The position numbers and the translations under genes are program-made. The notes under the pieces were generated by a model. That model worked only from the letters and a program-made list of their open reading frames with translations. It was not told where the DNA came from and did not search any database. 64,000 nt of DNA from Minisyncoccota bacterium (lineage in GTDB: Bacteria; Patescibacteriota; Microgenomatia; UBA1400; PJMF01). The DNA lies in NCBI GenBank assembly GCA_009885085.1, contig VFLK01000009.1, positions 3,810 to 67,809 on the forward strand. The letters are read 5' to 3'. Of the stretch, positions 7,039-47,153 are shown in pieces (position 1 is the stretch's first letter; each line of letters begins with the position of its first letter).

Positions 7039-7617
7039 ATGAAAACTATATATCTGGTTCGCCATGCAGAATATGAAAACCCAAATAATATTCTTGTAGG
7101 CAGACTTCCAGTAAAGCTTTCTGAAGCTGGAAAACAGCAAGCACAAAAACTTGCAACTTTTTTTAAAGACAAAAACATAGTTCAAATATACTCAAGTCCA
7201 GTGTTAAGGTGCAAACAAACTAGTGAAATAATTGCGTCTAATAAAATTCCAATTAAGCATGACCTGAGACTAGCGGAAACGTTATCCGCATTTCAAGGAT
7301 ATTGGGAGTTCAATTGGGATTACTTTTTTAAACATGTTGATGAGCTTGGTGGTGAGACACCTGAAGATATTTATAAAAGAATGTTAAGTTTTTGGGACGA
7401 GCTTGATAAAAAAAGTGATGGAGATATAATTATCTGCTCGCACGGTGATCCCTTATATTTACTTTATGCAAATTTAGCTGGAATTCCATTGCCAACCATT
7501 AGAGAAATTTATCAAATACCAGAGGAAAGATATCAACCAAAAGCTTCAATTAGAACAATATTCCTAGATACACTAGAAAATGATAAAGTTTCGATTGGGC
7601 CAATTATCAATCTATAG
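7039..7617 (+). CDS. Histidine phosphatase family protein (phosphoglycerate-mutase-like)
   Basis: RHG-type motif IYLVRHAEYEN and the second catalytic His in CSHGDPL. Confidence 0.8.
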   Translation: MKTIYLVRHAEYENPNNILVGRLPVKLSEAGKQQAQKLATFFKDKNIVQIYSSPVLRCKQTSEIIASNKIPIKHDLRLAETLSAFQGYWEFNWDYFFKHVDELGGETPEDIYKRMLSFWDELDKKSDGDIIICSHGDPLYLLYANLAGIPLPTIREIYQIPEERYQPKASIRTIFLDTLENDKVSIGPIINL

Positions 7618-8287
7618 ATTCTGAGGTTTTAGAGACTTTTGCTTTTGGAGCTTTTTTGGCTTTTGCTTTTTTCTTTTCGACCTTTGCTGGAGCAACTTCA
7701 TCATTTATCTCTTTAGTCACTTCTACAGCAGGAGCAATTTCTTTGGTAGATTTTGGTTTTTTGGCCATTACTTTTTCTGTAATGACTTTTATTTCGTTTA
7801 ATTCAGCAACATCAGCTCTAGAATTCAAGAATTTGAAAATTTTATCTAACTTTGAGTTAATAATCTCAAATTGTTTGTTGTAGTTTTCTTGAGGTCTAGC
7901 TGTTGGAGGAGAGAAACTTCTTTTGTTAGGTGAAAAACTAGGTCTTCTGGAATTACCGTCGCTATTTCCGCCACCGTTGCCTCTTTTTTCAAAACAATTA
8001 CTACAATAAACAGGTTTTCCTGAGCTAGGCATGAAAGGAACTTTGCAATTTCCACCACAATCTGCACAAACTGCGTCATGCATTTGAGCTGGCCCAGAAT
8101 TTTGTGAACCAAAACGAGGTCTATCTGAACCACGTCTGTCAGAACCTCTACTGTCAAAACCACGACTTTCGGATCCTCTACTATCAGAACCTCTGCGATC
8201 GGATCTTTGTCCTCCCTGTGGTTTTCTAAATTTATTTGTGTCGTTGTTGTAATTATTCATAAGTGCATTATACCAGGTAAATGTCAT
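7607..8287 (-). CDS. CxxC-x17-CxxC zinc-ribbon protein with RG/SR-rich repeats and a Lys-rich (histone-H1-like) tail
   Basis: CADCGGNCKVPFMPSSGKPVYCSNCF has exactly 17 residues between the CxxC pairs; an RGSDSRGSESRGFDSRGSDRRGSD low-complexity region; C-terminal KKKAKAKKAPKAK. Confidence 0.6.
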   Translation of the reverse strand: MTFTWYNALMNNYNNDTNKFRKPQGGQRSDRRGSDSRGSESRGFDSRGSDRRGSDRPRFGSQNSGPAQMHDAVCADCGGNCKVPFMPSSGKPVYCSNCFEKRGNGGGNSDGNSRRPSFSPNKRSFSPPTARPQENYNKQFEIINSKLDKIFKFLNSRADVAELNEIKVITEKVMAKKPKSTKEIAPAVEVTKEINDEVAPAKVEKKKAKAKKAPKAKVSKTSESID

Positions 8288-8764: not shown

Positions 8765-10126
8765 ATGAAACCCTTTTTTAAAAATAAAATCATTTTATAT
8801 ATTTCTTTGTTTGTTGTAATCTTTGGTAGTATTGTTTCTTATATTGTTTTCTCAATGGTAAGAATTAATCTTGTCAATTTTAATCAATCGTTATTCATTT
8901 CATTAATCGTGTTTGCTAGCGCATTTTTTTCAGGAATTATCACTATAATATTATTTTCAAAATTAGCAAATAAATTAGTTATTCAGAGACAAAAAATCGA
9001 AAACCAATTTAGTGAACTAAAAAAATTCAAGCTTGCTGTTGAGTATGCTTCAGATCACATTATTATTACTGATCCAGAAGGAATAATTCTTTATGCAAAC
9101 AATGCTGCAGAAACAATAACAGGTTATTCAAAGGAAGAAATGATTGGTAAAAAAGCAGGCAGTAAAGATCTTTGGGGTGGCCAAATGAATTCAAAATTTT
9201 ATAAAAATCTATGGGACACAATAAATCATAAAAAAAAGGTTTTTTCTGGAGAAATAACAAATAAAAGGAAGAATGGTCAAATTTATATATCCTTATCCAA
9301 AATTTCACCGGTATTAAATGGAAAAAATGAAGTAATATTTTTTGTTGGAATTGAGAGAGATATTACTCACGAAAAGGAAGTAGATAAGATGAAAACTGAG
9401 TTTATTTCATTGGCCTCTCATCAATTGAGAACTCCTCTGTCCGCAATGAAATGGTTCTTGGAGATGCTACTTGATGGCGATGCAGGTGAATTGAATAATG
9501 AACAAAAAGAAATGGTTGGGAATATAGATCTGTCTAATCAGAGAATGATCAGCTTAGTTAATGGATTACTAAATGTTTCTAGAATTGAATCGGGAAGAAT
9601 TAGTGTTAAACCTCAGCTCACGGATTTATCTAAATTAGTAAAAGAAATTTTGGTCGGGATGGAGCCAATGATTAAAGAAAAAAATCTGAAACTAGTTGTC
9701 AGTATTCATAAAAAAATGGGAGAAATTTTAATTGACCCAAGTTTGATTCAAGAAGTTTATAGAAATTTAATTACAAATTCTGTAAAGTATTCAAAGCAGG
9801 ATGGAGAAATTACTATATTTCTTTCAAACGACGACAAAAATGTTACGTTTCAAATAAGTGATGAGGGTATGGGTATTCCGCAAAGAGAACAGTCTAAAAT
9901 ATTTGAGAAATTTCATTGAGCAACAAATGCTCAAAAGTCAGTAGCAGATGGATCAGGATTGGGTTTATACTTAGCAAAATCTATAGTAGAATCTTCAAAT
10001 GGTAAGATTTGGTTTGAGAGTGTAGAAGATAAGGGAAGTACTTTTTGGTTCACCTTACCAACTTCTGGTATGAAAGCCAAAAAAGGTGAAGTAAGCCTAG
10101 ATAGATCACAATTAAAAGTTAGCTAA
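8765..10126 (+). pseudogene. Membrane PAS sensor histidine kinase interrupted by an in-frame TGA at 9917-9919 (between the HisKA/N-box region and the G-boxes); possible pseudogene or read-through
   Basis: Two TM helices, a PAS domain and the HisKA H-box SLASHQLRTPL; the reading frame continues unchanged after the TGA ([26 protein letters not shown]...GSTFWFTLP), and the paralogue at 20089 has Arg at this position (FEKFFRAKNA). Confidence 0.7.
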
Positions 10127-10142
10127 TGAAAGGCAGGAACTT

Positions 10143-10574
10143 ATGTCAGATGAAGTAACAGACAAAAAACGAACTATTTTAGTTGTTGAAGATGATGAGT
10201 TGTTGTCACAGGCAATAGTTAGAAAACTGATTATTACTAATTATGTTCCATATGCAGCTAAAACTCAGGGAGAAGCACTCGATTATTTAGAAAGTATGGA
10301 TCAGCCTATAGATGCAATTTGGTTAGATTACTATTTAGGCATGGATAAGTATTTAGGCGAGTCTACTGGATTAGACCTTCTTCAAAAGATAAAAGCTAAC
10401 GAAAAATGGAAAAATATCCCAGTCGTGGTAGTCAGCAACTCAGCCAGTGACGATAAAATTAAAAGTATGCTATTGCTTGGAGCCAATAAATACGTTCTTA
10501 AGGCTCAAAACAAGCTTGGGGATATCATCAAAACCTTCGACGAGTTTATTGTTGAAGAAAACAAATCTAAATAA
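10143..10574 (+). CDS. Stand-alone response-regulator receiver domain (CheY-like)
   Basis: ILVVEDDELL...AIWLDYYLG...VVVVSNSASDD...KYVLK receiver motifs and no output domain. Confidence 0.8.
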   Translation: MSDEVTDKKRTILVVEDDELLSQAIVRKLIITNYVPYAAKTQGEALDYLESMDQPIDAIWLDYYLGMDKYLGESTGLDLLQKIKANEKWKNIPVVVVSNSASDDKIKSMLLLGANKYVLKAQNKLGDIIKTFDEFIVEENKSK

Positions 10575-10580
10575 TTAAAC

Positions 10581-11981
10581 TTAGTCTACAAAGCTTAAAG
10601 CAATTCCAGTTTTATTTGCTCTTCCAGTTCTACCAATTCTATGAATATAGTCTTCATATGTTTGTGGTAAGTCGAAATTAATTACGTGAGTCACGTTATC
10701 AATATCTAAACCTCTAGAAGCAATATCCGTTGCCAAAAGTACCTGAATGTAATCTTGTTTAAACTGTTTCAAAGCTCTTTCACGTTGAGATTGTGATTTG
10801 TTGCCATGAATAGCAGCAACTTTAATTCCTCTTTCAACTAGATCTTGAGATAATTTATTCAAGCCATGCTTAGTTCTTCCAAAGACTAAGACTTTGTCAA
10901 AACCTTCTTGATCTAGTAAACCATGTAAAACATCTATCTTTGATCTACCCTGAATTTTAACAATTTCTTGATTAACATTTGTTGAAGCCTGTTGCTTTTC
11001 AACTTCAATTTTTACTGGGTTAGTCAAGAAACTTTGAATAATATCTTGCATTTTGTATGGTAGTGTTGCAGAGAAAAATAAAGAGTGTCTTTTTTGTGGT
11101 AATTTTTCAATCACATATTTCATATCGTTAATGAAGCCCATATCAAACATTTGATCGACCTCATCTAAAACGATAGCTGAAAATGAACTAAAGTTAAACG
11201 TTCCACGTTTTTCTAAATCAATTAATCTTCCTGGAGTTCCAATTATAAAATGTGGACCTCTTCTAAGTGAAGACATTTGACTATTCATATTGGCTCCCCC
11301 AATACAAAGAGCGGAATACATTCCCATTCGGTTTGCAAAAAGTTTGAACTCATCATTAATTTGAACAGCCAATTCTCTAGTTGGAGCCATAATCAAAACT
11401 CTACCCAATTTTTGATCTTTGTCTTGAATAGTTTCAAAGACATTATTAATTAATGGTATTAAAAAAGCAGCAGTTTTGCCGGTGCCTGTACTTGCAACAC
11501 CAGTTACGTCTCTGCCTTCTAAAATAAGATTAATTATTTGATCTTGAATTGGAGTAGGGGTTTCATAACCTCTTTCAATGATATTTTGCTTCAATGGTTC
11601 GCAAATCTTAAAATCGACAAATTTATTTTTTGATACATAGGCAACTTTTGCTGGTTCGTTAACGGCCACAATTGCTGCATTTTGAATTAAGTTAGATGGA
11701 TTAAATGAACTTTGTTGTCTTGAGCGTCCTCCTCTTGAAAAGTGATTGCCACCTCCACGAGAGTTGCCTCCACGACTTGAGTTATTAACTCCACCTCCAC
11801 GACTTGAGTTATTGTCGCCACCGCCACGATGACTATCTCCGCTTGAGCTACCTCCACGGGCACTGAAACCACGGCTACTGCCATGACTTCCGCCACTTCG
11901 GCTACTTCCACCACGAGAATTGTTACCACCAAATTTATGGCTTGAGTTCGATGAAGAACTCTTTGAGAATGAACTATACAT
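10581..11981 (-). CDS. DEAD-box ATP-dependent RNA helicase with an N-terminal RGG/Gly-Ser-rich extension
   Basis: Q-motif, Walker A VASTGTGKTAAF, DEVD, SAT, HRIGRTGR; an N-terminal ~110-aa SRGGGSSRG low-complexity region encoded by GC-rich tandem repeats. Confidence 0.9.
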   Translation of the reverse strand: MYSSFSKSSSSNSSHKFGGNNSRGGSSRSGGSHGSSRGFSARGGSSSGDSHRGGGDNNSSRGGGVNNSSRGGNSRGGGNHFSRGGRSRQQSSFNPSNLIQNAAIVAVNEPAKVAYVSKNKFVDFKICEPLKQNIIERGYETPTPIQDQIINLILEGRDVTGVASTGTGKTAAFLIPLINNVFETIQDKDQKLGRVLIMAPTRELAVQINDEFKLFANRMGMYSALCIGGANMNSQMSSLRRGPHFIIGTPGRLIDLEKRGTFNFSSFSAIVLDEVDQMFDMGFINDMKYVIEKLPQKRHSLFFSATLPYKMQDIIQSFLTNPVKIEVEKQQASTNVNQEIVKIQGRSKIDVLHGLLDQEGFDKVLVFGRTKHGLNKLSQDLVERGIKVAAIHGNKSQSQRERALKQFKQDYIQVLLATDIASRGLDIDNVTHVINFDLPQTYEDYIHRIGRTGRANKTGIALSFVD

Positions 11982-12161: not shown

Positions 12162-12863
12162 TTATAAGATGTGGGGCAAAGCACTGGGATTAAAAAGAAG
12201 CCACTGTTTTATAAACTCAAATTTAAATAGTTCTCTTTGAAATTGGACAGTTTTTTTCAGGGCAATTTTTTGTGACCACTTATCTAACTTAATATGATTC
12301 TTGGAATAGAAAGGAATCCAAAATGTTTTTTTCTTATTTTTAAGTAGATAACTGTTGATGGCAAACTCGACTTCATAGTTAGCAGGATTATTTTTAAATA
12401 CGTTAATCAAGTCAGAGGTTTTCAAAATTCTTTCTCCAGAAACAATAAGATCGTGTCTTAGAATTTTTGAGATTAACGGATCATTAGATTGGCGTAAAAT
12501 TAAGGCGTCAATTTGAGGATCATTTGAAACTGAATCTAGCGCATTTTCTATAGATTCTGAAGTAAATGAGTTTAAATCAGCATCAAATAACAGGACATGC
12601 GATGTTTTCACTTGATTGAGACCATATTCGATTGCCGAAGATTTTCCTGCATTAATCTTATAGCCAACCACTTTTATTTTTTTATTTTGAGCAAACGCTC
12701 GAGAAATTATTTTAACTGTATTATCAGTCGAACCATCATCTATACAAATAATTGATTCAAGTTTTCCAGAGTCAACTAAAACATTAAGTTTTTTCAGTAC
12801 ACTGACTAGTCGCCAGTTTTCATTGAAAAATGGAATTAAGCAGGTAAATTGGATTTTTTGCAT
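12162..12863 (-). CDS. Family 2 glycosyltransferase (dolichyl/polyprenyl-phosphate sugar synthase-like)
   Basis: CLIPFFNE...CIDDGSTDNT...LLFDADL GT2 motifs. Confidence 0.75.
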   Translation of the reverse strand: MQKIQFTCLIPFFNENWRLVSVLKKLNVLVDSGKLESIICIDDGSTDNTVKIISRAFAQNKKIKVVGYKINAGKSSAIEYGLNQVKTSHVLLFDADLNSFTSESIENALDSVSNDPQIDALILRQSNDPLISKILRHDLIVSGERILKTSDLINVFKNNPANYEVEFAINSYLLKNKKKTFWIPFYSKNHIKLDKWSQKIALKKTVQFQRELFKFEFIKQWLLFNPSALPHIL

Positions 12864-12875
12864 AATATTAATTCT

Positions 12876-13358
12876 TCAAGTTGAGTTTTTTAAAGTGAGA
12901 TTTTTAAAAAACTCTGAAACTTCTTGAGCATGATTTTCTGCTTTAACTTTTGGCCATACCTTGATAATCTTTCCATTTTTGTCTAGGACAAAAGTTATTC
13001 TTAAGATACCTTGATAAATCTTTCCAAACATTGATTTTTCTCCGATAGCACCAAAAGCAGTAATGAGCTTTCTGTCTTGATCTGACCATAGAGGAAAGTT
13101 TAGTTCGTGTCTATCACTGAATTTTATGTGAGATTCTGGAGAATCTCCACTAATTCCAATAATTTGTATTCCAAGATTTTTTAGATCCTTGTTAAAATCT
13201 CTAAAACTACAAGCCTCTTTAGTGCAACCTGGAGTGTTATCTTTTGGATAGAAGTAAACAACTGTTGGCTTACCCAGTAATTCAGACAATGAAACAGGAT
13301 TTTGGTTTTGATCTAGCACTTTTGTATCTAGTGGTGCAATTTCTCCGACTTTAAGCAT
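12876..13358 (-). CDS. bcp: Thioredoxin-dependent peroxiredoxin Bcp
   Basis: VVYFYPKDNTPGCTKEACSFRD, the Bcp/PrxQ active-site motif. Confidence 0.9.
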   Translation of the reverse strand: MLKVGEIAPLDTKVLDQNQNPVSLSELLGKPTVVYFYPKDNTPGCTKEACSFRDFNKDLKNLGIQIIGISGDSPESHIKFSDRHELNFPLWSDQDRKLITAFGAIGEKSMFGKIYQGILRITFVLDKNGKIIKVWPKVKAENHAQEVSEFFKNLTLKNST

Positions 13359-13388
13359 ATCTTTTCCTCTTTTTTATATATAAAATAA

Positions 13389-15428
13389 GTGTATATGTCA
13401 AAACTATTTAAAGCTAGTTTGTTTGTATTTGTTATCTTCTCAATTATTTTCATACCCTCAAAAGCCTGGGCAAAATCATATTCGATTGATCAAGTTCAGA
13501 TAGAAGCTGAAGTTTTCGAAGATGGATTAATGAGCGTTAAAGAAAAGAGAGACTATAATTTTTCTGGTGATTATTCGTATGCGTATGAGTATATTTATAA
13601 ATTTCCAGATCAAGAAAAAAGTCCTGGAAGAACTACTCCATACTTATTAAATAATTTCAAAATCTGCGAAACCGGTGGAGTCAAAAATAATTGTTATCAG
13701 GAATTAACAGATTCTCAAATTGATTTGGAAAATCCGAAGAATAATCCTGTCAATAGTTTTTTTGTTGCTGATCAAGGCACTAGATATTATATTCAGTGGA
13801 ATTATTCGGCTCAAAACGAAGTGAAATATTTTGAGATTTCTTATGATGTTACCAATGCGGTAACACTTCATGCGGATGTTGCCGAACTTTATTGGCAGTT
13901 TATTGGATCTCAGTGGGAGATGCCTCAAAAAAACATTCTAGTAAATCTGAGTTTTTCAAATTCAATTAATGGAAACGATTTAAAGGCATGGGCTCACGGA
14001 CCGCTTGAAGGTGAGGTTGCAATATCTGAGTCAGTTAATGAGCCAAAAGTTACTTTTAAGGTGCCGGGAACTGTAATTGGAGAATTTGTTGAGGCCAGAA
14101 TTCTAATGCCAAAAGAATATTTTTCTGATGGAGCAACTGGAAACAGTGATAGAGCAACAATTCAAGGTCAGGAAGAAACTTTTATTAAAGAGACGATTGA
14201 TAGTAAGAAAAAAACCGCAGTATTACAAATTCTTTTTTTTGTGATAATTTTGGGAATTTTTGCATTGATAGTTTATAAATTTATTAAGCAAGTTAATTTA
14301 TTCTTAAAATATGGAAAGGATGATCCACTTCCAACAGTAAATGCGCCTGGAACTCTTTGGGAACCACCAAGCGATATTGATCCAGCTCAAATAGAGCAAC
14401 TTATATCTGGAACCAAAAACATAACTCCAAAGGCATTTACAGCAACTGTTCTATCGTTGGTTCAAGACAGATATTTTAAGTTTGTAAGAAGTGATCAAAA
14501 AGAGGGTTTATTCACTAAAAATTATAAATACTATCTAGAACCTTTTAATCAGAAACAGTCATATTTAATTCAACCAGTTAAAACAATTTCTTCAGTTCAG
14601 CAAGAAGTCATGCGTTTTTTGTTAGAGAAAGTTGGTTTAAAGAAAGTGACTGTTGAGGGCAAAGAAAGAGATGTTATTTCATTAGATGCAATTGTTTCAT
14701 GGTCAAAGAATCATCAAATCGAAAGTCAGACATTTTTTAAATCTTTGAAAGAAACTACCTTTAAAGAGAATCTTTTAGAGGGCTATTTTAATCAAGAGTC
14801 TCATAAAAATAAAACTAAAGTAAATGGCGGAATCGTAATTGGACTAAGTATTTTGTTACTACTTTTTTCTTTCGCGGTGATCCCAGCAATTTTTAGTACT
14901 TTTAGTAGCGATTTAAGTTATATGTCTATTGCAGTTGCGAGTGGTCTTTTTGGATTTGTAGGAATGGTTTTGGGAATAATTCTTGCGATTATAGGTGAGT
15001 TTGGAGAAAAACGAACACCTAAGGGAAGTGAGGAGGCTGCGGAGTGGTTGGCTTTTGGCAAACATATGCGTAATTACAAAAAGACTGCTAAGTATGAGAT
15101 TGATTCAATAGTTATTTGGGAGAAGTATTTGGTTTATGGAACTTTACTTGGGGTCTCGGCAAAAGCTTTGTCACAGTTACCAATTAAGTTTACTCAGGCT
15201 GATGCCATGATTGTTTCTTCTTATTGGGGCGGAAGAACATTGTCTACTAGTGGATCAGTTGCTGGATTGAATGATTTGTCCTCGGCTATAAATAGTGTAA
15301 CTACGGCGATATCTAGTATTAATCAATCTGCCACAAGTAGCTATGGAGCTTCCGGTTCCGGTTCATCCGGAGGGTTTTCTGGAGGTGGAGGAGGCGGTGG
15401 AGGTGGAGGAGGCGGTGGAGCTGGCTGA
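13389..15428 (+). CDS. DUF2207-family membrane protein with a poly-Gly C-terminus
   Basis: Signal peptide, large extracytoplasmic domain, central and C-terminal TM helices, and a C-terminal SGSSGGFSGGGGGGGGGGGGGAG tail typical of DUF2207. Confidence 0.75.
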   Translation: MYMSKLFKASLFVFVIFSIIFIPSKAWAKSYSIDQVQIEAEVFEDGLMSVKEKRDYNFSGDYSYAYEYIYKFPDQEKSPGRTTPYLLNNFKICETGGVKNNCYQELTDSQIDLENPKNNPVNSFFVADQGTRYYIQWNYSAQNEVKYFEISYDVTNAVTLHADVAELYWQFIGSQWEMPQKNILVNLSFSNSINGNDLKAWAHGPLEGEVAISESVNEPKVTFKVPGTVIGEFVEARILMPKEYFSDGATGNSDRATIQGQEETFIKETIDSKKKTAVLQILFFVIILGIFALIVYKFIKQVNLFLKYGKDDPLPTVNAPGTLWEPPSDIDPAQIEQLISGTKNITPKAFTATVLSLVQDRYFKFVRSDQKEGLFTKNYKYYLEPFNQKQSYLIQPVKTISSVQQEVMRFLLEKVGLKKVTVEGKERDVISLDAIVSWSKNHQIESQTFFKSLKETTFKENLLEGYFNQESHKNKTKVNGGIVIGLSILLLLFSFAVIPAIFSTFSSDLSYMSIAVASGLFGFVGMVLGIILAIIGEFGEKRTPKGSEEAAEWLAFGKHMRNYKKTAKYEIDSIVIWEKYLVYGTLLGVSAKALSQLPIKFTQADAMIVSSYWGGRTLSTSGSVAGLNDLSSAINSVTTAISSINQSATSSYGASGSGSSGGFSGGGGGGGGGGGGGAG

Positions 15429-20088: not shown

Positions 20089-21231
20089 ATGAACAAATTA
20101 GTGAGCAGTTTTTTTGGGAAAAAATCAAAATCGTCGAGTAGTAATGCTTTAGAGCAGAACTATAAGACGATTTTTGACTATGTTAGCGATGCACTTTTTA
20201 TTCACGATATAGATACGGGAAAAATTTTAGATGTAAATAAAAAAATGTGCAAAATGTATGGATACAGTAAAGAGGAAGTTTTGCATTCGAGCGCTGGTAC
20301 ATTTTGTTCTGGAATTGCACCATATACTCAAGAAACAGCTCAAGATAAAATTAATCAAGCAGCAACTGGAAAACAACAAGTTTTTGAATGGCAAGCAAAA
20401 ACAAAAACTGGCAAGTTATTTTGGGTGGAGGTAAGATTAGAAAAAGTTGTTTTAGATGGCTTAGACAAAATTATTGCAACTGTGAGAGATATTTCTGATA
20501 GGAAACTTATTGAAGAAAATAAGCTTTATATAGATAAGGCAAAAACTGAGTTTATTTCACTCGCTGCTCATCAATTACGAACTCCACTTGGCTCAATGAG
20601 ATGGAATACTGAAATTTTGCTACAGAGTGCAAAAGAATACAATCTGTCTCCTGAAGTAATTGGTTTAATCAAAAATAATTATCAAAGTAATTTGAAAGTT
20701 ATAGATTTGGTTAACGAATTATTAAATGTTTCTAGAATTGATCATAATAAAGTAAAGTCTGATGTTAAAAGATTTTCTTTGGTTGAGGTAATTGAGGAAA
20801 TAATTGAAGAACTTAGTTATGAAGCAAATCTCAAATCTGTTGTTTTGAATTTTAGAAAAAATAAAGATTATCATTATTTGGTTGAAATGGATCGTAAGCT
20901 CATTAAAGAGGCAATTCAAAATGTGATTGGAAACGCGGTTAAATATTCTTTTCAAAATACAGAGATCTCAATTTCCCTGAACAAAAAAGAAAAGAATTTT
21001 GAGATAAAAATCTCTAATGTTGGAATAGGCATTCCTTCCTTTGATAATAAATATATTTTTGAGAAATTTTTTAGAGCTAAAAATGCTATTAAACTTAGTT
21101 CTAAAGGATTCGGTTTGGGTCTATTTATTGCAAAGTCATTTATCGAAAGGATGGATGGAAATATTTCGTATTCTAGCGATGAAGATAAAAGAACGATCTT
21201 TATTGTGCGAATCCCAGCACCAACGGTCTGA
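20089..21231 (+). CDS. Cytoplasmic PAS-domain sensor histidine kinase (paralogue of the 8765 kinase)
   Basis: PAS fold, H-box SLAAHQLRTPL, N-box/G-boxes FEKFFRAKNA...GFGLGLFIAKSF; no TM helices. Confidence 0.85.
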   Translation: MNKLVSSFFGKKSKSSSSNALEQNYKTIFDYVSDALFIHDIDTGKILDVNKKMCKMYGYSKEEVLHSSAGTFCSGIAPYTQETAQDKINQAATGKQQVFEWQAKTKTGKLFWVEVRLEKVVLDGLDKIIATVRDISDRKLIEENKLYIDKAKTEFISLAAHQLRTPLGSMRWNTEILLQSAKEYNLSPEVIGLIKNNYQSNLKVIDLVNELLNVSRIDHNKVKSDVKRFSLVEVIEEIIEELSYEANLKSVVLNFRKNKDYHYLVEMDRKLIKEAIQNVIGNAVKYSFQNTEISISLNKKEKNFEIKISNVGIGIPSFDNKYIFEKFFRAKNAIKLSSKGFGLGLFIAKSFIERMDGNISYSSDEDKRTIFIVRIPAPTV

Positions 21232-22486
21232 TAAAAAATATTTTATTTTATTATTTTTTGTTAGCGTACTTTTATATTCCGCTGTTATTTTTAAAGTTAA
21301 GACAATACTTTGGGGGGACAGTTTATATTATTACGCATACACAAAATCAATGGTCATTGATCATGATATAGATTTTAAAAATGAAGCATATAGAATTTCT
21401 GATGGTTTTCCAAATGAACCAGAAGTCTCGGAAGTAACGGGAAAAGTAATTAATAAATTTTCTCCAGGGACCTCAATATTTTGGATACCTGGATTTGTTC
21501 TGGGACATGCTGCGAGTAGCATTTTAGAAGCTGTCGACATCATTAAAAATATTGATGGTTATAATTTTGTAACGCAATACGTGGTTGCGGTTTCAGCAAT
21601 TTGTTTTTCTACACTTGGATTATTTTTTTCATATAAAACTATCAAATTATTTTTTGATAGAAAAACTGCACTATTAATAACATTGTTTTTGTATCTAACA
21701 ACGCAGATGTTTTACTATACTTCAATTGATCCTTTGAATTCTCACTCCTCATCTTTTATGCTGTCATCGTTATTTTTATATTTGTTGGCATTTTTTTCAA
21801 AAACAAGAAATCTTAGCTGGCAAAAAATGATAACTTTTGGATTCATAGGTGGCGCAATGGTGCTAGTAAGAAATCAAGATATCGTGCTGCTTGTTCCGGC
21901 TTCTCTTTATTTTTTAACCAAAAATGGTGGCATATTAAACAGGGAGGGATTAATGGAAATGATAAATAGAATGATTCTATTTTGGGGAAGCATTTTTTTG
22001 ATATTAAGTATTCAAATGTTTATTACACTAGATTTATACGGAATAGTTGGAAGCCCTTACATTATCGGAGGCGAAAAATTGTCCTGGTTTAAACCAGATT
22101 TTATTAGAGTTTTGTTTAGTTTTGAAAATGGTTTGTTTACATTTGCGCCAATAATAATAATTTCGTTAATTGGATTATTATTGGCTTCGAATAATGTCTC
22201 AAAAAGCCAACAGCAAGCAGTATTGTTCAGACATCTCAGTCTAATCTCAATTTTTGCTTTCCTTTTACAGCTATATGTAGTTGCTTCCTGGGGGAGAGAA
22301 ATTATTGGGGGTCCATACGGATCGAGAATGTTTATTAGTATTTTGCCTTATTTATCATTAGGGTTGGCACTAGTCATTAAAAGATATAAAAATCATCGCA
22401 ACTTCAAATGGGCTACTTTCATAGGACTTGCATTACTATTTGCCAATAATTTGGCTCAAACTGCGATAATGCTTATTAGATTTTAG
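21179..22486 (+). CDS. PMT_2/ArnT-like family 39 glycosyltransferase (multi-pass membrane protein); start uncertain and overlaps the hk stop
   Basis: GDSLYYYAYTKSMVIDHDIDF resembles the D(E/S)xYYxxxx(R/K)xL...G N-terminal loop motif of PMT_2 glycosyltransferases; about 11 TM helices. The first in-frame ATG is at 21179, 52 nt before the hk stop. Confidence 0.5.
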   Translation: MKIKERSLLCESQHQRSDKKYFILLFFVSVLLYSAVIFKVKTILWGDSLYYYAYTKSMVIDHDIDFKNEAYRISDGFPNEPEVSEVTGKVINKFSPGTSIFWIPGFVLGHAASSILEAVDIIKNIDGYNFVTQYVVAVSAICFSTLGLFFSYKTIKLFFDRKTALLITLFLYLTTQMFYYTSIDPLNSHSSSFMLSSLFLYLLAFFSKTRNLSWQKMITFGFIGGAMVLVRNQDIVLLVPASLYFLTKNGGILNREGLMEMINRMILFWGSIFLILSIQMFITLDLYGIVGSPYIIGGEKLSWFKPDFIRVLFSFENGLFTFAPIIIISLIGLLLASNNVSKSQQQAVLFRHLSLISIFAFLLQLYVVASWGREIIGGPYGSRMFISILPYLSLGLALVIKRYKNHRNFKWATFIGLALLFANNLAQTAIMLIRF

Positions 22487-24497: not shown

Positions 24498-26762
24498 ATG
24501 GCTTTAAATAAAAAAACGTTTTTTAATTTTTTTTTAGGTCAGAAAAATAATTTTTCTAAAGGAAAGGACAATTCTTTGTTAAATTTAGATTTGATGTTCT
24601 ATCCAAAATCGATTGCTCTTGTTGGGGCATCTTCAGATGATAAAAAGTTAGGTTCAATTGTTCTAAAAAACATTATTGATTCCGGATTTAAAGGAGAAAT
24701 ATTTCCTCTCAATTTAACATCAGCGACCATTTTAGGTTTGAAGACATATAAAGACTATGAAGATTTGCCGTCAATTCCTGATTTGGCATTAATTGCAATT
24801 CCAGCAAAATTTGTTTTAGAAGTTCTTGAAAAAATTATTAAAAAAGGTACCAAAAACGTAGTGATTTTTAGTGCTGGTTTTAAAGAGGCTGGATTGGAGG
24901 GACTAGCACTTGAACAAGATCTTTTGGAAATGATTAAAAAAAGTTCCACTGATGGTTCAATAAAAATTAACGTTTTAGGACCAAACTGTTTGGGCTTTGT
25001 GAACAATCTTTTTCCCGTTAACGTGACTTTCGGTCAGCCAGTAAATAAAAAAGGAAACTTAAGATTTATTTCTCAATCTGGTGCAATAGCATCAAGCGTC
25101 TTTGATTGGGCAGAATATAATGAAATTGGATTTAGCGAATTTGTGACACTTGGAAATAAGACAGATCTTAATGAAAATGATGTTTTAAAATATTTCTATG
25201 AAAATGATATTTCTTCTCAAACTAAAGAAGAAGGTAACTCTGGTTTAGTACCAGTTGGAATGTATTTAGAGTCAATTATTGATGGTAAAGAATTCATTAA
25301 TATTTCTAAAAAATTGTCTGCCAAAAATCCACTTTTTCTATTAAAGCCAGGCAAGTCAAATGAGTCTAAAAAGGCAATGCAATCGCATACAGGTTCAATT
25401 GCTGGTGAGGACTATGTTTTAGACGTTGCTCTTAAAAAAGCTGGAATTATTCGTTGCGATGGCATAGAAGATTTTTTTGACTTAGCCAAAGTCTTTGCTT
25501 GGGAAAAAATTCCAAAAGGGAAGAATATTGCAATAATATCTAATGCTGGTGGACCTGCAGTTTTGAGTTCAGATTTTGTAGCAGAAGAAGGGTTAAAGTT
25601 AGTTCGCTTTGACGAGGAAACTAGAAATGAGCTAGAGAAGCATTTGCCAAGAGCAGCAAGTATTTTAAATCCAGTGGACGTTTTAGGAGACGCCTTGGCC
25701 GAAAGATATGAGAGTGCGATCAAGACCTTAATTGTTGATGAAGACGTTCATTCCTTACTGATTATTTTGACCCCTCAGGTTATGACTCAAATTGAGCAAA
25801 CTGCTGAAGTGATTGGCAGGTTGTCACTTGAGTTTAGTAAGCCAATAATTTGTTCGTTTATGGGAGGTAGTCACATTGCAAAAGGAGAAAAAGTTCTAAA
25901 TAAGTTTAAAATTCCATCTTTCAGATATCCTGAAAGAGCGGTTAAGGCAATTGCTAGAATGAGCCAATGGGCTGAGTACAGAGATCTTTTAAATGTAAGT
26001 TCTGGATCAGTGATCTCGTCAAAATCAGTAATTTCAACAAAAGAAAGCGATTTATCTCAAGATAAACAAAATTTTGAGGCAAATAAAATATTATCGAAGG
26101 TTTTAACAACAGATAGAAAAAACCTAGATAGTTTTGAAGCTAATGGAATGTTACAAGCTTATGGAATCAATACTCCGCCAACTAAAAAGTGTATGGGTCT
26201 TGATGACGCGAGATCATTTGTGCAAGAAAATAGTTTTCCTGTAGTGCTTAAGATATCTTCTCCTCAAATGTTGCATAAAAGTGATGAGGGAGGCGTGATT
26301 GTGGGAATTGATAACGATGAAATACTTGAAGAAGCATTCAGGAGTATGCAAAAAATTATGGAAAACATGAAAGAATCTAATTTCAATTCAATTCAAATTC
26401 AAAAACAGGTTGCAAAAGGTTTGGAGTTAATAATTGGTTCTAAAAAAGATATTGTTTTTGGGAATGTTTTGATGTTTGGTGCCGGTGGCATTCTAGCAAA
26501 TTTAATTGAGGATCGAAATTTGGGATTAATTCCAATAAGTGAGGCAGAAGTAGCTTTGATGATCAAAAACTCAAAAGTAAATAAACTGATTGAGGGCTAT
26601 CGTGGCGAAAAAGGCTATGACTCAACTAAAATTGCAGATTTGATTTCTAAATTTCAAACTATGATCAGTTCTCATCCAGAAATATCTGAAGCGGATATCA
26701 ACCCGGTGATATTAAATGATGATGGAATTTGGGCAGTAGATGGTAAAATAATCTTAATATGA
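24498..26762 (+). CDS. Acetate/acyl--CoA ligase (ADP-forming), fused alpha-beta (Acd)
   Basis: 754 aa: CoA-binding Rossmann domain (KSIALVGASSDDKKLGSIVLKN), an SCS-like ligase-CoA region, and a C-terminal ATP-grasp. Confidence 0.8.
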   Translation: MALNKKTFFNFFLGQKNNFSKGKDNSLLNLDLMFYPKSIALVGASSDDKKLGSIVLKNIIDSGFKGEIFPLNLTSATILGLKTYKDYEDLPSIPDLALIAIPAKFVLEVLEKIIKKGTKNVVIFSAGFKEAGLEGLALEQDLLEMIKKSSTDGSIKINVLGPNCLGFVNNLFPVNVTFGQPVNKKGNLRFISQSGAIASSVFDWAEYNEIGFSEFVTLGNKTDLNENDVLKYFYENDISSQTKEEGNSGLVPVGMYLESIIDGKEFINISKKLSAKNPLFLLKPGKSNESKKAMQSHTGSIAGEDYVLDVALKKAGIIRCDGIEDFFDLAKVFAWEKIPKGKNIAIISNAGGPAVLSSDFVAEEGLKLVRFDEETRNELEKHLPRAASILNPVDVLGDALAERYESAIKTLIVDEDVHSLLIILTPQVMTQIEQTAEVIGRLSLEFSKPIICSFMGGSHIAKGEKVLNKFKIPSFRYPERAVKAIARMSQWAEYRDLLNVSSGSVISSKSVISTKESDLSQDKQNFEANKILSKVLTTDRKNLDSFEANGMLQAYGINTPPTKKCMGLDDARSFVQENSFPVVLKISSPQMLHKSDEGGVIVGIDNDEILEEAFRSMQKIMENMKESNFNSIQIQKQVAKGLELIIGSKKDIVFGNVLMFGAGGILANLIEDRNLGLIPISEAEVALMIKNSKVNKLIEGYRGEKGYDSTKIADLISKFQTMISSHPEISEADINPVILNDDGIWAVDGKIILI

Positions 26763-43881: not shown

Positions 43882-46215
43882 ATGGACTTGCCCAACCTAT
43901 TCTCAACAAATTCAGATAAAGAAACTCAAGTGATGACTATTTTCATTCATTTGACTGATATCAAAATTCAATCATTTTTGCTTTCAATTTCAGATGAGGG
44001 CGTTAAAATTTTGGGAAAATCTAGTGTTGCTGGATATGAGGGAGTTGATAATTGTCTGGTAAGAGTTGACGAAAGTTTGCAACAGCTTGGTAAAGAATCT
44101 GAAAAAGTCAGCTCAGTCATTTTTGGTCTAAATCATGCCTGGGTCAAAAAGGGTGAGGTTAATGAGGATAAAAATCCTTTATTAAAAAAGCTCACCGATG
44201 ATTTGGGTTTAAAGCCAATGGGTTTTATTGTAATTTCTGAGGCTCTTGTTCAACAAAAAATTTCTAACAACTCGATGTTCTCTGGAATAATTGCAGTTTT
44301 TAGCGAGAAGAATTTGACACTTTCATTAGTTCATCAAGGTAAGGTTAAATCTATAGAAACCGTGGGAAGATCATCTGACGGCAAAGGTGATTTTCTTGAG
44401 GGGTTAGCACGATTTTCAGCTAAATCGGAAAAAGACGGTTATTATTTACCATCAAAAATAATTATTGCCTCTCTCGATCTTGATGAAAAAGATCTTAAGA
44501 AACATCAACAATTTATTTATGATTCTGATTGGACTGCTCAAGCTCAGTTTTTACAACCTCCAACAGTGGAAATAGTTGCTCAAAAAGATTATGAAGAAAT
44601 GATCACTAAAGAAGCCGCCAAAGCAGTTGCTTTACAAAAAGGTATGACAAAAGCCGCCTTGGCTGTAATCGCAACCAGAGATTTAGGAGCCAAAGAACCA
44701 ACAGAACTTCATACAGACGAGCTTGGATTTAGTGAAGTTAATTCAGATTTAGATTCTGAATTAGAAACAGGGGATGAAACTATTGATGATGTAGCTGTTG
44801 CCCCAACTTCATTTGGAGTACCTATTTCTACAAAAGATTTTGATAAAGAGCTTACTTCAATTAGTGACAGAAACCTAAAAGAGCCAGATTTTGAGGAAGA
44901 TAGTGAGTTGGCTGTAGATTTTTCTGGTAAAGAGGCTGAGGTTGATGATCAAGATTACGGAGAAACAAAGCATATTTTTGATAAAAATAGATCTCAGGAT
45001 GATATTGGTGGAAAAATTGTTGCATCAAATAAAACAAAAAAACATTATAAAAATTTTAAACTTTATACTTTGGTTGGGTTCATCGCTGGTTTAATTGCTT
45101 TGTTAGTTATTGGTTTTTTTGGAATTACCAACTTAGCAGTTGCAAAGGTTAATGTAGGTCTAGAACCAATTTCAATTTCCAAAGATTTAACAATTACTTT
45201 GGATACCTCAATTTCAGAAACCGATAGCGAAAAACTAATTTTGGCTGCAAATAAGGTTTCTAGGACGGCAAAGTCTGAGAGTAGTATGCAAACTACAGGA
45301 GTGACAATCGTTGGCGAGAAAGCTAAGGGAAAAATAAAAATCTATAACAATTTAGTAGCAGCTGAAAAACTATTAACTAAGGGCACATTGTTAAGTGCGG
45401 GAGATGTAAAATTTGAACTCGATGATGACGTCACTGTTCCATCAGCAAGTTCTTCTAGGCCTGGACAGTTAGAACCAGGACAGATTGATGCCTCGGTGAC
45501 AGCAACAAAAATAGGAGCTGAAGGAAATATTGTAGAAGATACTGAGTTAGTAGTTTTGCCTTTTGATAAAAGCTCATACTACGCAGTCGTGATTGATGAT
45601 GACTTTGTTGGTGGTTCAAGCCGTGAAGTAAAGGTCGTTTCTGAGGCAGATAGAGTTGAGTTACTTGCCGATTTGAGGAAGGAGATTATTGAAGAAATTA
45701 ATAAAGGGTTCCAGGATGATTCTGGAAATGGTGTATATATTTTGCCATCTAAAAAAATTGTAGCTGAGGAAGTTAAATTTAATTTTGAAGTTGGGAATGA
45801 AGCAGAATCTTTATCACTTAATTTAACTTTAGAAATTGAAGCAATCAAGTATACCTCAGAAGATTTAAAACCACTGGCAACTAAAGTTTTAGCTTCAGAA
45901 ATACCTGAAAATTATAAGTTATCTGACGATGATCCTCAAATATTGTCTGCTCCAACCGAAAATGACCTAAAAACATTGGATACTACTAAGCCAGTAACTT
46001 TGTCTGCAAATATTAGTTCTTTTGCAATACCAGTAATTACAGAAGAGACAATCAAAGATCAAATTTTAGGAAAATCTGTTGAAGAAGCCAAATCATTACT
46101 TGAGGCAAAGGACGAAATCAAAACTGTAGAAATTACAATCGATCCTTCATTCGCTAGGTCTCTAGTTAAAAAAATACCTGGAAAATTGGAAAAAATAAAG
46201 GTCGAGTTTAAATGA
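43882..46215 (+). CDS. Large bitopic hypothetical protein (~390-aa cytoplasmic N-domain, 1 TM, ~360-aa extracytoplasmic C-domain) coupled to a sortase
   Basis: 777 aa; TM helix YTLVGFIAGLIALLVIGFFGI near residue 395; the N-domain has weak actin-like (FtsA/PilM-style) strand patterns without a canonical phosphate-binding Gly; its stop overlaps the sortase ATG (ATGA). Confidence 0.5.
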   Translation: MDLPNLFSTNSDKETQVMTIFIHLTDIKIQSFLLSISDEGVKILGKSSVAGYEGVDNCLVRVDESLQQLGKESEKVSSVIFGLNHAWVKKGEVNEDKNPLLKKLTDDLGLKPMGFIVISEALVQQKISNNSMFSGIIAVFSEKNLTLSLVHQGKVKSIETVGRSSDGKGDFLEGLARFSAKSEKDGYYLPSKIIIASLDLDEKDLKKHQQFIYDSDWTAQAQFLQPPTVEIVAQKDYEEMITKEAAKAVALQKGMTKAALAVIATRDLGAKEPTELHTDELGFSEVNSDLDSELETGDETIDDVAVAPTSFGVPISTKDFDKELTSISDRNLKEPDFEEDSELAVDFSGKEAEVDDQDYGETKHIFDKNRSQDDIGGKIVASNKTKKHYKNFKLYTLVGFIAGLIALLVIGFFGITNLAVAKVNVGLEPISISKDLTITLDTSISETDSEKLILAANKVSRTAKSESSMQTTGVTIVGEKAKGKIKIYNNLVAAEKLLTKGTLLSAGDVKFELDDDVTVPSASSSRPGQLEPGQIDASVTATKIGAEGNIVEDTELVVLPFDKSSYYAVVIDDDFVGGSSREVKVVSEADRVELLADLRKEIIEEINKGFQDDSGNGVYILPSKKIVAEEVKFNFEVGNEAESLSLNLTLEIEAIKYTSEDLKPLATKVLASEIPENYKLSDDDPQILSAPTENDLKTLDTTKPVTLSANISSFAIPVITEETIKDQILGKSVEEAKSLLEAKDEIKTVEITIDPSFARSLVKKIPGKLEKIKVEFK

Positions 46216-47153
46216 AAACGCAACCAAAGACCGTTGTAATGCAGAACGACATAATAGATCTTTATAGAAACGCTTTACGACAAGGAATTGAAATATCTCA
46301 AGTAGAAAAGAAAATTAACCATCATCTTAAGAGGTTGAGTGCAAGTGATAGTATCGAAAATCAAGAGGATGAGTTGAGGTCTGAAAACGAAATAAAACGA
46401 TTACCAAAAATTGTGAGAGTGGGTGCAATGTTGTTGCCAATTTTATTTTTGATAATTGGTTTTTATTTGGTAGGTAGCGCTGTGGTCCCGATTATTGGAT
46501 CATATATGATTGTTGCTAAAGATGTTCAGACTACTAATCTTACTTCTCCAGTGCCTCTAGATCAGGTAATGGATGTTACTCCTCTAGTAATCACGCAAAC
46601 TAACACCCCAGAAAAAGTTGATAGAGACCTGGAAATTATCAACGAAGAATTAGATTATACAAATCTGTCCAATTGGTTTAGTTCGTCAACACTGCCAGAA
46701 TTTGGTTTGCCAGAGCTAGACTACAACATCACTAAATATATGATTGATATTCCTAAACTAAAAATCAGTAACGCTATTGTTAGTGTTGGTGGTAATGATC
46801 TTAAGGAAAATCTCATTGCTTTTAAGGGCACTGCTTTACCTGGGAGTCCTGGTTCTCCAGTAATTTTTGGTCATTCGGTTCTTAGACAATTTTATAATCC
46901 GAGTGAGAAAAATCCTCGAAGATATAACTCTATTTTTAGCACTATCATGACCTTGGAAACTGGTGATAAAATATTTGTCACATCTGGGGGAGTGAAGTAT
47001 ACATACGCTGTTTCACTAAAGAAGGAAGTTAAACCTGAGGATGTGTACATTTTGACCCAGAAATATGATGCCAAGCAACTTAAATTAGTTACATGCACAC
47101 CTGAAGGAACTTATTTACGTCGTGGAGTTGTGACGGCTCAACTGATAGAATAA
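46212..47153 (+). CDS. Sortase-family transpeptidase
   Basis: N-terminal TM anchor; catalytic triad context VIFGHSVL (His), KLVTCTP (TLxTC Cys), YLRRGVV (Arg). Confidence 0.7.
   Translation: MKTQPKTVVMQNDIIDLYRNALRQGIEISQVEKKINHHLKRLSASDSIENQEDELRSENEIKRLPKIVRVGAMLLPILFLIIGFYLVGSAVVPIIGSYMIVAKDVQTTNLTSPVPLDQVMDVTPLVITQTNTPEKVDRDLEIINEELDYTNLSNWFSSSTLPEFGLPELDYNITKYMIDIPKLKISNAIVSVGGNDLKENLIAFKGTALPGSPGSPVIFGHSVLRQFYNPSEKNPRRYNSIFSTIMTLETGDKIFVTSGGVKYTYAVSLKKEVKPEDVYILTQKYDAKQLKLVTCTPEGTYLRRGVVTAQLIE

Follow-up and report, generated by a model that had tools for sequence, protein, structure and literature searches.

An in-frame TGA at an invariant ATP-lid arginine position of a PAS/HisKA sensor kinase gene: a likely young nonsense allele

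The window, by which we mean the whole 64-kb stretch of DNA analysed here, contains a sensor histidine kinase gene (hk1) at 8765-10126 on the forward strand, whose 454 codons form one reading frame. The sole internal stop of this frame is a TGA at 9917-9919, with G as the next base; the sequence and its translation thus bear out the description, given in the initial annotation, of a one-frame kinase with a single in-frame TGA at this position. The part upstream of the stop (8765..9916, +), as defined by the ORF list, Pfam and the translation, comprises 384 codons. Two hydrophobic helices can be read from the translation at about residues 9-31 and 43-65, and Pfam places a PAS domain at residues 88-200 (nt 9026-9364) and a HisKA domain at residues 209-277 (5.5e-17). 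The phospho-acceptor His219 (codon 9419-9421) lies within the motif SHQLRTPL and is invariant in the 121 aligned sequences.

The ATP-binding domain, HATPase_c, is recovered as one Pfam match that spans the TGA (residues 324-433, 95.5 bits, 3.5e-27). In the translation its N box (NLITNSVKY), G1 box (DEGMGI) and F box (FEKFH) lie upstream of the TGA, which, judging by the sequence and the alignment of homologues, stands in place of an ATP-lid arginine codon. The in-frame remainder of the domain (9920..10126, +) encodes the rest of the ATP lid, the G2 (GSGLGL) and G3 (GSTFWF) boxes and the C-terminal tail, and ends in TAA. The earlier statement that G1, G2 and G3 are all intact downstream of the stop therefore holds for G2 and G3, while G1 sits upstream. 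With the TGA between the F and G2 boxes, HATPase_c and its N, G1, F and G2 boxes are not encoded in one uninterrupted polypeptide, and 9920-10126 is untranslated unless the TGA is read through. The 69 codons past the TGA are open, an outcome with a chance of about 0.006 at 34.5% GC according to base-composition arithmetic.

A stand-alone, intact receiver (response regulator) gene begins 16 nt past hk1, at 10143-10574 (+). It matches Response_reg (3.9e-12) and has its own AGGA before the ATG, in agreement with the proposal that a cognate receiver immediately follows the kinase. The same pairing of kinase and receiver is kept at a related locus (L002, CAZHLX010000002.1), where a receiver sharing 58% identity with the present one comes after an 802-aa kinase. 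Beyond the receiver gene, on the opposite strand at 10581-11981 (-), lies a gene for a 466-aa protein with putative helicase-like motifs and a long low-complexity, Arg/Gly/Ser-rich N-terminus that contains SRGG repeats. On the other side of hk1, at 7607-8287 (-), a 226-aa protein has a low-complexity Arg/Gly/Ser-rich N-terminus with RGSD/SRGS repeats, followed by CxxC...CxxC.

A second PAS kinase, hk2, is encoded at 20089-21231 (+). It is a soluble kinase and a distant paralogue: hk1 and hk2 share 39% identity overall, and their likeness is confined to the local F-box motif. The near-identical catalytic core attributed to the pair was thus not recovered, while the arginine reported for hk2 at the aligned site is present, encoded by AGA. 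A long ORF in another frame (21041-22486, +) would share 190 nt with the 3' end of hk2 if it began at its earliest possible start; the true start probably lies after 21231. Elsewhere in the window, a 679-aa membrane protein encoded at 13389-15428 (+) ends in a Ser/Gly run with thirteen consecutive glycines (GGGGGGGGGGGGGAG) before its TGA. A 777-aa protein without a Pfam match (43882-46215, +) is encoded by a gene that overlaps the downstream sortase gene (46212-47153, +); the protein is possibly exposed on the surface or a substrate of the sortase. ARAGORN found no tRNA or tmRNA gene in the 64 kb, despite the presence of rpoB-rpoC, the S12-S7-EF-G-EF-Tu genes and the S10-L3-L4-L23 region.

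The significance of the interrupted position is apparent from the relatives of hk1. The alignment set consisted of the 119 best database homologues together with hk2, giving 120 homologues, and arginine occupies the interrupted column in 120/120. None of these proteins terminates at or near the TGA column, and none is a split kinase. The local peptides of the closest relatives are FEKFHRASNA and FEKFHRATNAQK. Among solved structures the best match of hk1 is Thermotoga HK853 (E about 4e-38), which reads IFEQFYRVD at the site, and the TGA column falls on the R of FYRVD, residue 430 as counted from the start of the construct. [quoted passage not shown] At the position equivalent to this ATP-lid arginine, hk1 has the codon TGA and hence no arginine.

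Wider searches gave a consistent picture. Scanning GTDB species representatives, a set that excludes the window's own genome, with the repaired hk1 protein returned 47 loci, the best of which is 66% identical over residues 74-451. The N-terminus of hk1 had no match in any of the 47, and the 24 closest contain no in-frame stop within the kinase core. Where the F-box motif could be found in these loci, the arginine at the site is encoded by CGG, CGT, CGA, AGA or AGG. Among 5.8 billion proteins the best match reaches 69% identity, and covers the PAS-kinase core only; no orthologue above this level was found in that collection, in the GTDB species representatives or in JGI metagenome contigs. A search of the JGI contigs with a degenerate FEKFH-NNN-ATNA pattern returned one match, FEKFHIATNA in an unrelated 1307-aa protein, which was rejected as a chance hit. 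The 384-aa hk1 product itself is in the protein collection (P0001), where it is a singleton whose only source is an NCBI contig of 68,279 nt; the contig index has no record of the exact 384-aa product.

Judged by sequence similarity, these kinase relatives probably point to a compact, AT-rich (34.5% GC) genome of the Microgenomates type within the candidate phyla radiation. Several of the closest loci (L002-L023) are titled 'uncultured Pseudomonadales' or 'Gammaproteobacteria', and GC is low (37-44%) in the 24 loci checked; other relatives that share the kinase family carry the names Woesebacteria or Roizmanbacteria. The proteobacterial names are apparently misassigned.

The origin of the stop can be narrowed using the arginine codons of the window. 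The earlier suggestion that a single C- or A-to-T change from CGA or AGA would suffice is in line with arginine codon usage, which favours AGA. In hk1 itself, ten arginine codons are AGA, one is AGG and none is CGN; AGA supplies 190 of the 273 arginine codons in nine large window genes, and hk2 has AGA at the aligned site. Because of this preference, an AGA to TGA change, through A-to-T at 9917, appears to be the most likely event. An origin from CGA is possible, since relatives use CGA as well as CGG, CGT, AGA and AGG at the site. The surrounding bases offer a potential route for the change. T9917 forms part of a perfect 7-bp hairpin, TTGAGCA-ACAAA-TGCTCAA (9916..9934, +), in whose predicted fold the mutant T pairs with A9933, and an ancestral A or C at 9917 leaves the inverted repeat imperfect, at 6/7. 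Perfect 7-bp stems number only 58 in the 64 kb and cover 1.1% of its bases. Quasi-palindrome (template-switch) mutagenesis has been described in E. coli, and the present case resembles it in that the mutant base completes a previously imperfect 7-bp inverted repeat. Unlike the E. coli cases, the stem here is short and the match is post hoc. We treat it as a lead, in which the hairpin-completing T9917 may be the signature of a quasi-palindrome template switch.

The rest of the gene closely resembles those of its relatives. At the 119 columns that are at least 90% conserved, hk1 deviates twice (K154N and A339S), compared with a family median of 3 and a mean of 3.8. Its identity to the relatives is 58.2% before the TGA and 63.3% after it, and the corresponding values for the relatives among themselves, on either side of the TGA column, are 59.0% and 63.4%. 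Neither the conserved columns nor the identity comparison detected decay or further lesions on either side of the stop. Because no decay is detectable, we infer that the nonsense lesion is very recent or, alternatively, that the gene is still under selection. The intactness of hk1 is equally to be expected of a functional gene expressed by read-through.

TGA is a regular terminator in this stretch of DNA. At least ten other window genes end in TGA at their natural termini. The Pfam model for L4 is matched to 190/190 and that for an ATP-grasp CoA ligase to 221/221; both proteins end in TGA, and the stops overlap the starts of the L23 and flavodoxin genes, respectively, as ATGA. In total, four ATGA stop/start overlaps, LapA-domain/NUDIX (2072-2075), ATP-grasp ligase/flavodoxin (26759-26762), large putative surface protein/sortase (46212-46215) and L4/L23 (63454-63457), show translational coupling with TGA as the terminator. 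If TAA and TAG are taken as the sole stops, every genuine TGA-ending gene reaches another stop within 1-26 codons, and the only long TGA-bridged frames in the window are hk1 and a pair at 12162-13373. A candidate second in-frame TGA, at 12878, was set aside as a case of two genes, a peroxiredoxin ending naturally in TGA and an ORF with its own ATG. The hk1 TGA is the only one found in frame inside any gene of the 64-kb window. In-frame TGA is absent from rpoB, rpoC, fusA and tuf, and tryptophan is encoded by TGG, which occurs 47 times in nine large genes. That TGA is a genuine stop in hk2 and rplD, as the initial annotation had it, is confirmed; in hk2 the TGA is directly followed by TAA.

Could the stop be an artefact of sequencing, or not a stop at all? 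The former would require that the organism truly carries AGA or CGA, and that the T arose in a low-coverage assembly. The receiver protein occurs on only one NCBI contig and one 917-nt Logan contig, which suggests modest coverage, and the lack of decay in hk1 also fits an error. Nonetheless, the independently assembled Logan contig (SRR8670878_700928, L001; run SRR8670878), which was reached through the receiver protein only, covers window positions 9725-10641 and is 100% identical, including the TGA; it may share reads with the deposited assembly, and a minority intact allele at 9917 is compatible with both. The two assemblies, produced by different software, give the same base, the 917-nt stretch around it is otherwise identical, and a random substitution would need to strike one of few stop-creating sites. 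Because Logan discards k-mers that occur only once, the T should be present in two reads or more. A literature search on run SRR8670878 found nothing. The CGA or AGA that had been named as the mark of an error was not seen in the second assembly, which also reads TGA. We judge an error unlikely, and the T at 9917, reproduced by two assemblies, to be probably real in the sampled DNA. The same contig bears on the second question, as Logan's automatic gene caller read through the hk1 TGA to give a 133-residue product (L001 1-402), and code 25 is used by some lineages of the candidate phyla radiation. This call apparently reflects the caller's choice of code, seemingly a TGA-sense code applied to a short AT-rich contig, rather than biology. 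Codes 4 and 25 are excluded for the window because TGA terminates elsewhere and occurs in frame only once in 64 kb; the initial annotation had already argued against code 25. The natural-terminus TGA stops of L4, the ATP-grasp ligase, peroxiredoxin, hk2 and other genes, the four ATGA overlaps, the TGA-free rpoB, rpoC, fusA and tuf and the use of TGG for tryptophan all speak against recoding, as do homologues that have arginine at the site and not glycine, tryptophan or cysteine. Selenocysteine is excluded because those homologues carry arginine, not cysteine, and because there is no downstream hairpin, no Rfam match and no tRNA gene. Specifically, folding yielded no SECIS-like hairpin downstream of the TGA, the only local hairpin being the one that contains the UGA itself; Rfam gave no match for 9600-10300 at E <= 1; and with no tRNA gene in the 64 kb there is no suppressor or selenocysteine tRNA. 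A reassigned code or selenocysteine at the hk1 TGA consequently retains almost no credibility.

If the UGA is a real stop, it might nevertheless be useful to the cell. A leaky stop maintained by selection would provide a little full-length kinase alongside the truncated form, and the 69 downstream codons are indeed intact and as family-like as those of functional relatives; this weighs little, because a young mutation explains them equally. Each of the ten genuine TGA stops examined has A or T as its next base and that of hk1 has G, a difference that is not significant with n=10 in AT-rich DNA. In E. coli, a UGA followed by G terminates translation comparatively efficiently. Downstream of the stop, neither a stimulatory structure nor any known recoding element was found, and folding of 9905-10000 gave a stability no greater than that of shuffled sequences (z = -0.96); the stop-codon context favouring read-through that had been suggested as a check was not found. 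The usual bacterial UGA suppression inserts tryptophan, which would here replace an ATP-contacting arginine invariant in 120/120, and none of the 120 family members has a stop at the site. Our search of the literature found no paper linking Patescibacteria with stop-codon read-through. We therefore regard a selected leaky stop as very unlikely and programmed read-through as unsupported and highly improbable. A UGA kept by selection, and either read through or decoded as arginine by a near-cognate tRNA at a useful rate, seems more doubtful still; were it true, a low, tunable supply of full-length kinase beside a truncated, kinase-dead sensor would amount to programmed read-through in a two-component system. 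Equally, the truncated protein might itself function; with PAS and DHp still in use, it could, for instance, be a phosphatase-only sensor or a dominant-negative one. In some kinases, EnvZ among them, the DHp domain keeps phosphatase activity when isolated, and the PAS, HisKA and His219 regions of hk1 are intact, as is the receiver gene. Yet none of the 120 relatives is truncated at or near this point, the cut falls at no clean boundary, what remains of the ATP-binding domain is an incomplete half that is probably unfolded, and nothing would then keep the coding sequence past the stop intact. A functional truncation is, in our estimation, quite improbable. Finally, a naturally split kinase, whose C-terminal piece is made from its own start, could draw on a 55-codon ORF with a TTG start (9959-10126). 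However, this TTG falls within the G2 box and directly follows AGGA, the only purine-rich stretch, which leaves no spacing. The next in-frame start, an ATG at 10070, is past the G3 box, no relative is split, and the 55-aa product has no record in the contig index. This two-gene reading, for which the initial annotation had specified an independent downstream start and ribosome-binding site, was rejected, as the TTG within the G2 box is the only candidate and there is no credible start or ribosome-binding site after the TGA; the chance that it is correct is negligible.

We are left with a young single-base nonsense allele as the likely explanation for the hk1 TGA, either as a fresh pseudogene or as a loss-of-function variant segregating in the population. 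A recent mutation is well supported because the arginine is invariant, no decay is detectable, TGA is a normal stop in the window and the T is found in a second assembly. Of the two possibilities first raised, a very recent mutation and a leaky stop, the former is strengthened and the latter has gained no positive evidence. According to this model, a single substitution would have converted the invariant ATP-lid arginine codon of a PAS/HisKA kinase to UGA, so that translation would end after residue 384. The 384-aa product would run from the membrane anchor through the PAS domain and the dimerisation and His-phosphotransfer helices to half way into the ATP-binding domain. Missing from it would be the Arg430 equivalent, the ATP lid, both the G2 and the G3 box, and the final strands of the fold. 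Because the alignment with HK853 places the ATP lid, G2 and G3 in the missing part, kinase activity is predicted to be lost, and the truncated product should fail to bind ATP and to autophosphorylate. The partner receiver gene remains intact.

The biological weight of this event is small, as one more case in which a small genome loses a paralogous sensor kinase to a point mutation, and its implications are mostly practical. We recommend annotating hk1 as a pseudogene or disrupted gene, with the 384-aa database entry (P0001) as its truncated product. Translations made by gene callers through the TGA, such as that of Logan, can seed false evidence for TGA recoding in protein databases. If both alleles appear in sequencing reads, the site would cleanly mark a loss-of-function variant that segregates in an uncultivated population. 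Should the stop prove to be conserved in sister lineages, it would be of interest as regulated read-through, but not otherwise.

The clearest structural counterpart of hk1 is Thermotoga maritima HK853 (PDB 2C2A, 3DGE), a class I HisKA/HATPase_c kinase whose DHp and catalytic domains align end to end with the hk1 frame. As in HK853, the H, N, G1, F, G2 and G3 boxes are all recognisable. What sets hk1 apart is its PAS sensor, its short membrane anchor of two helices and an encoded product that stops at the Arg430 position. Closer in sequence are PAS-HisKA kinases of the Microgenomates type from the candidate phyla radiation (P0004, P0005 and L002), which are 56-69% identical to hk1 across PAS and the kinase core; one of them, P0005, has a local peptide (FEKFHRATNAQK) identical to that of hk1. 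Most relatives are about 700-800 aa long, with large extracytoplasmic and HAMP domains, whereas hk1 is short, a feature it shares with P0047 and P0051 (about 440 aa). The relatives have arginine where hk1 has TGA. The coding density of the window is high and we noticed no other broken gene among its roughly 68 ORFs; one in that number seems within the usual bacterial range. Like ordinary nonsense pseudogenes, hk1 has one in-frame stop at a position that is sense in its relatives, and belongs to a family with several paralogues in the genome. It differs from them in having no further lesions, as would suit an allele that is very young or still polymorphic.
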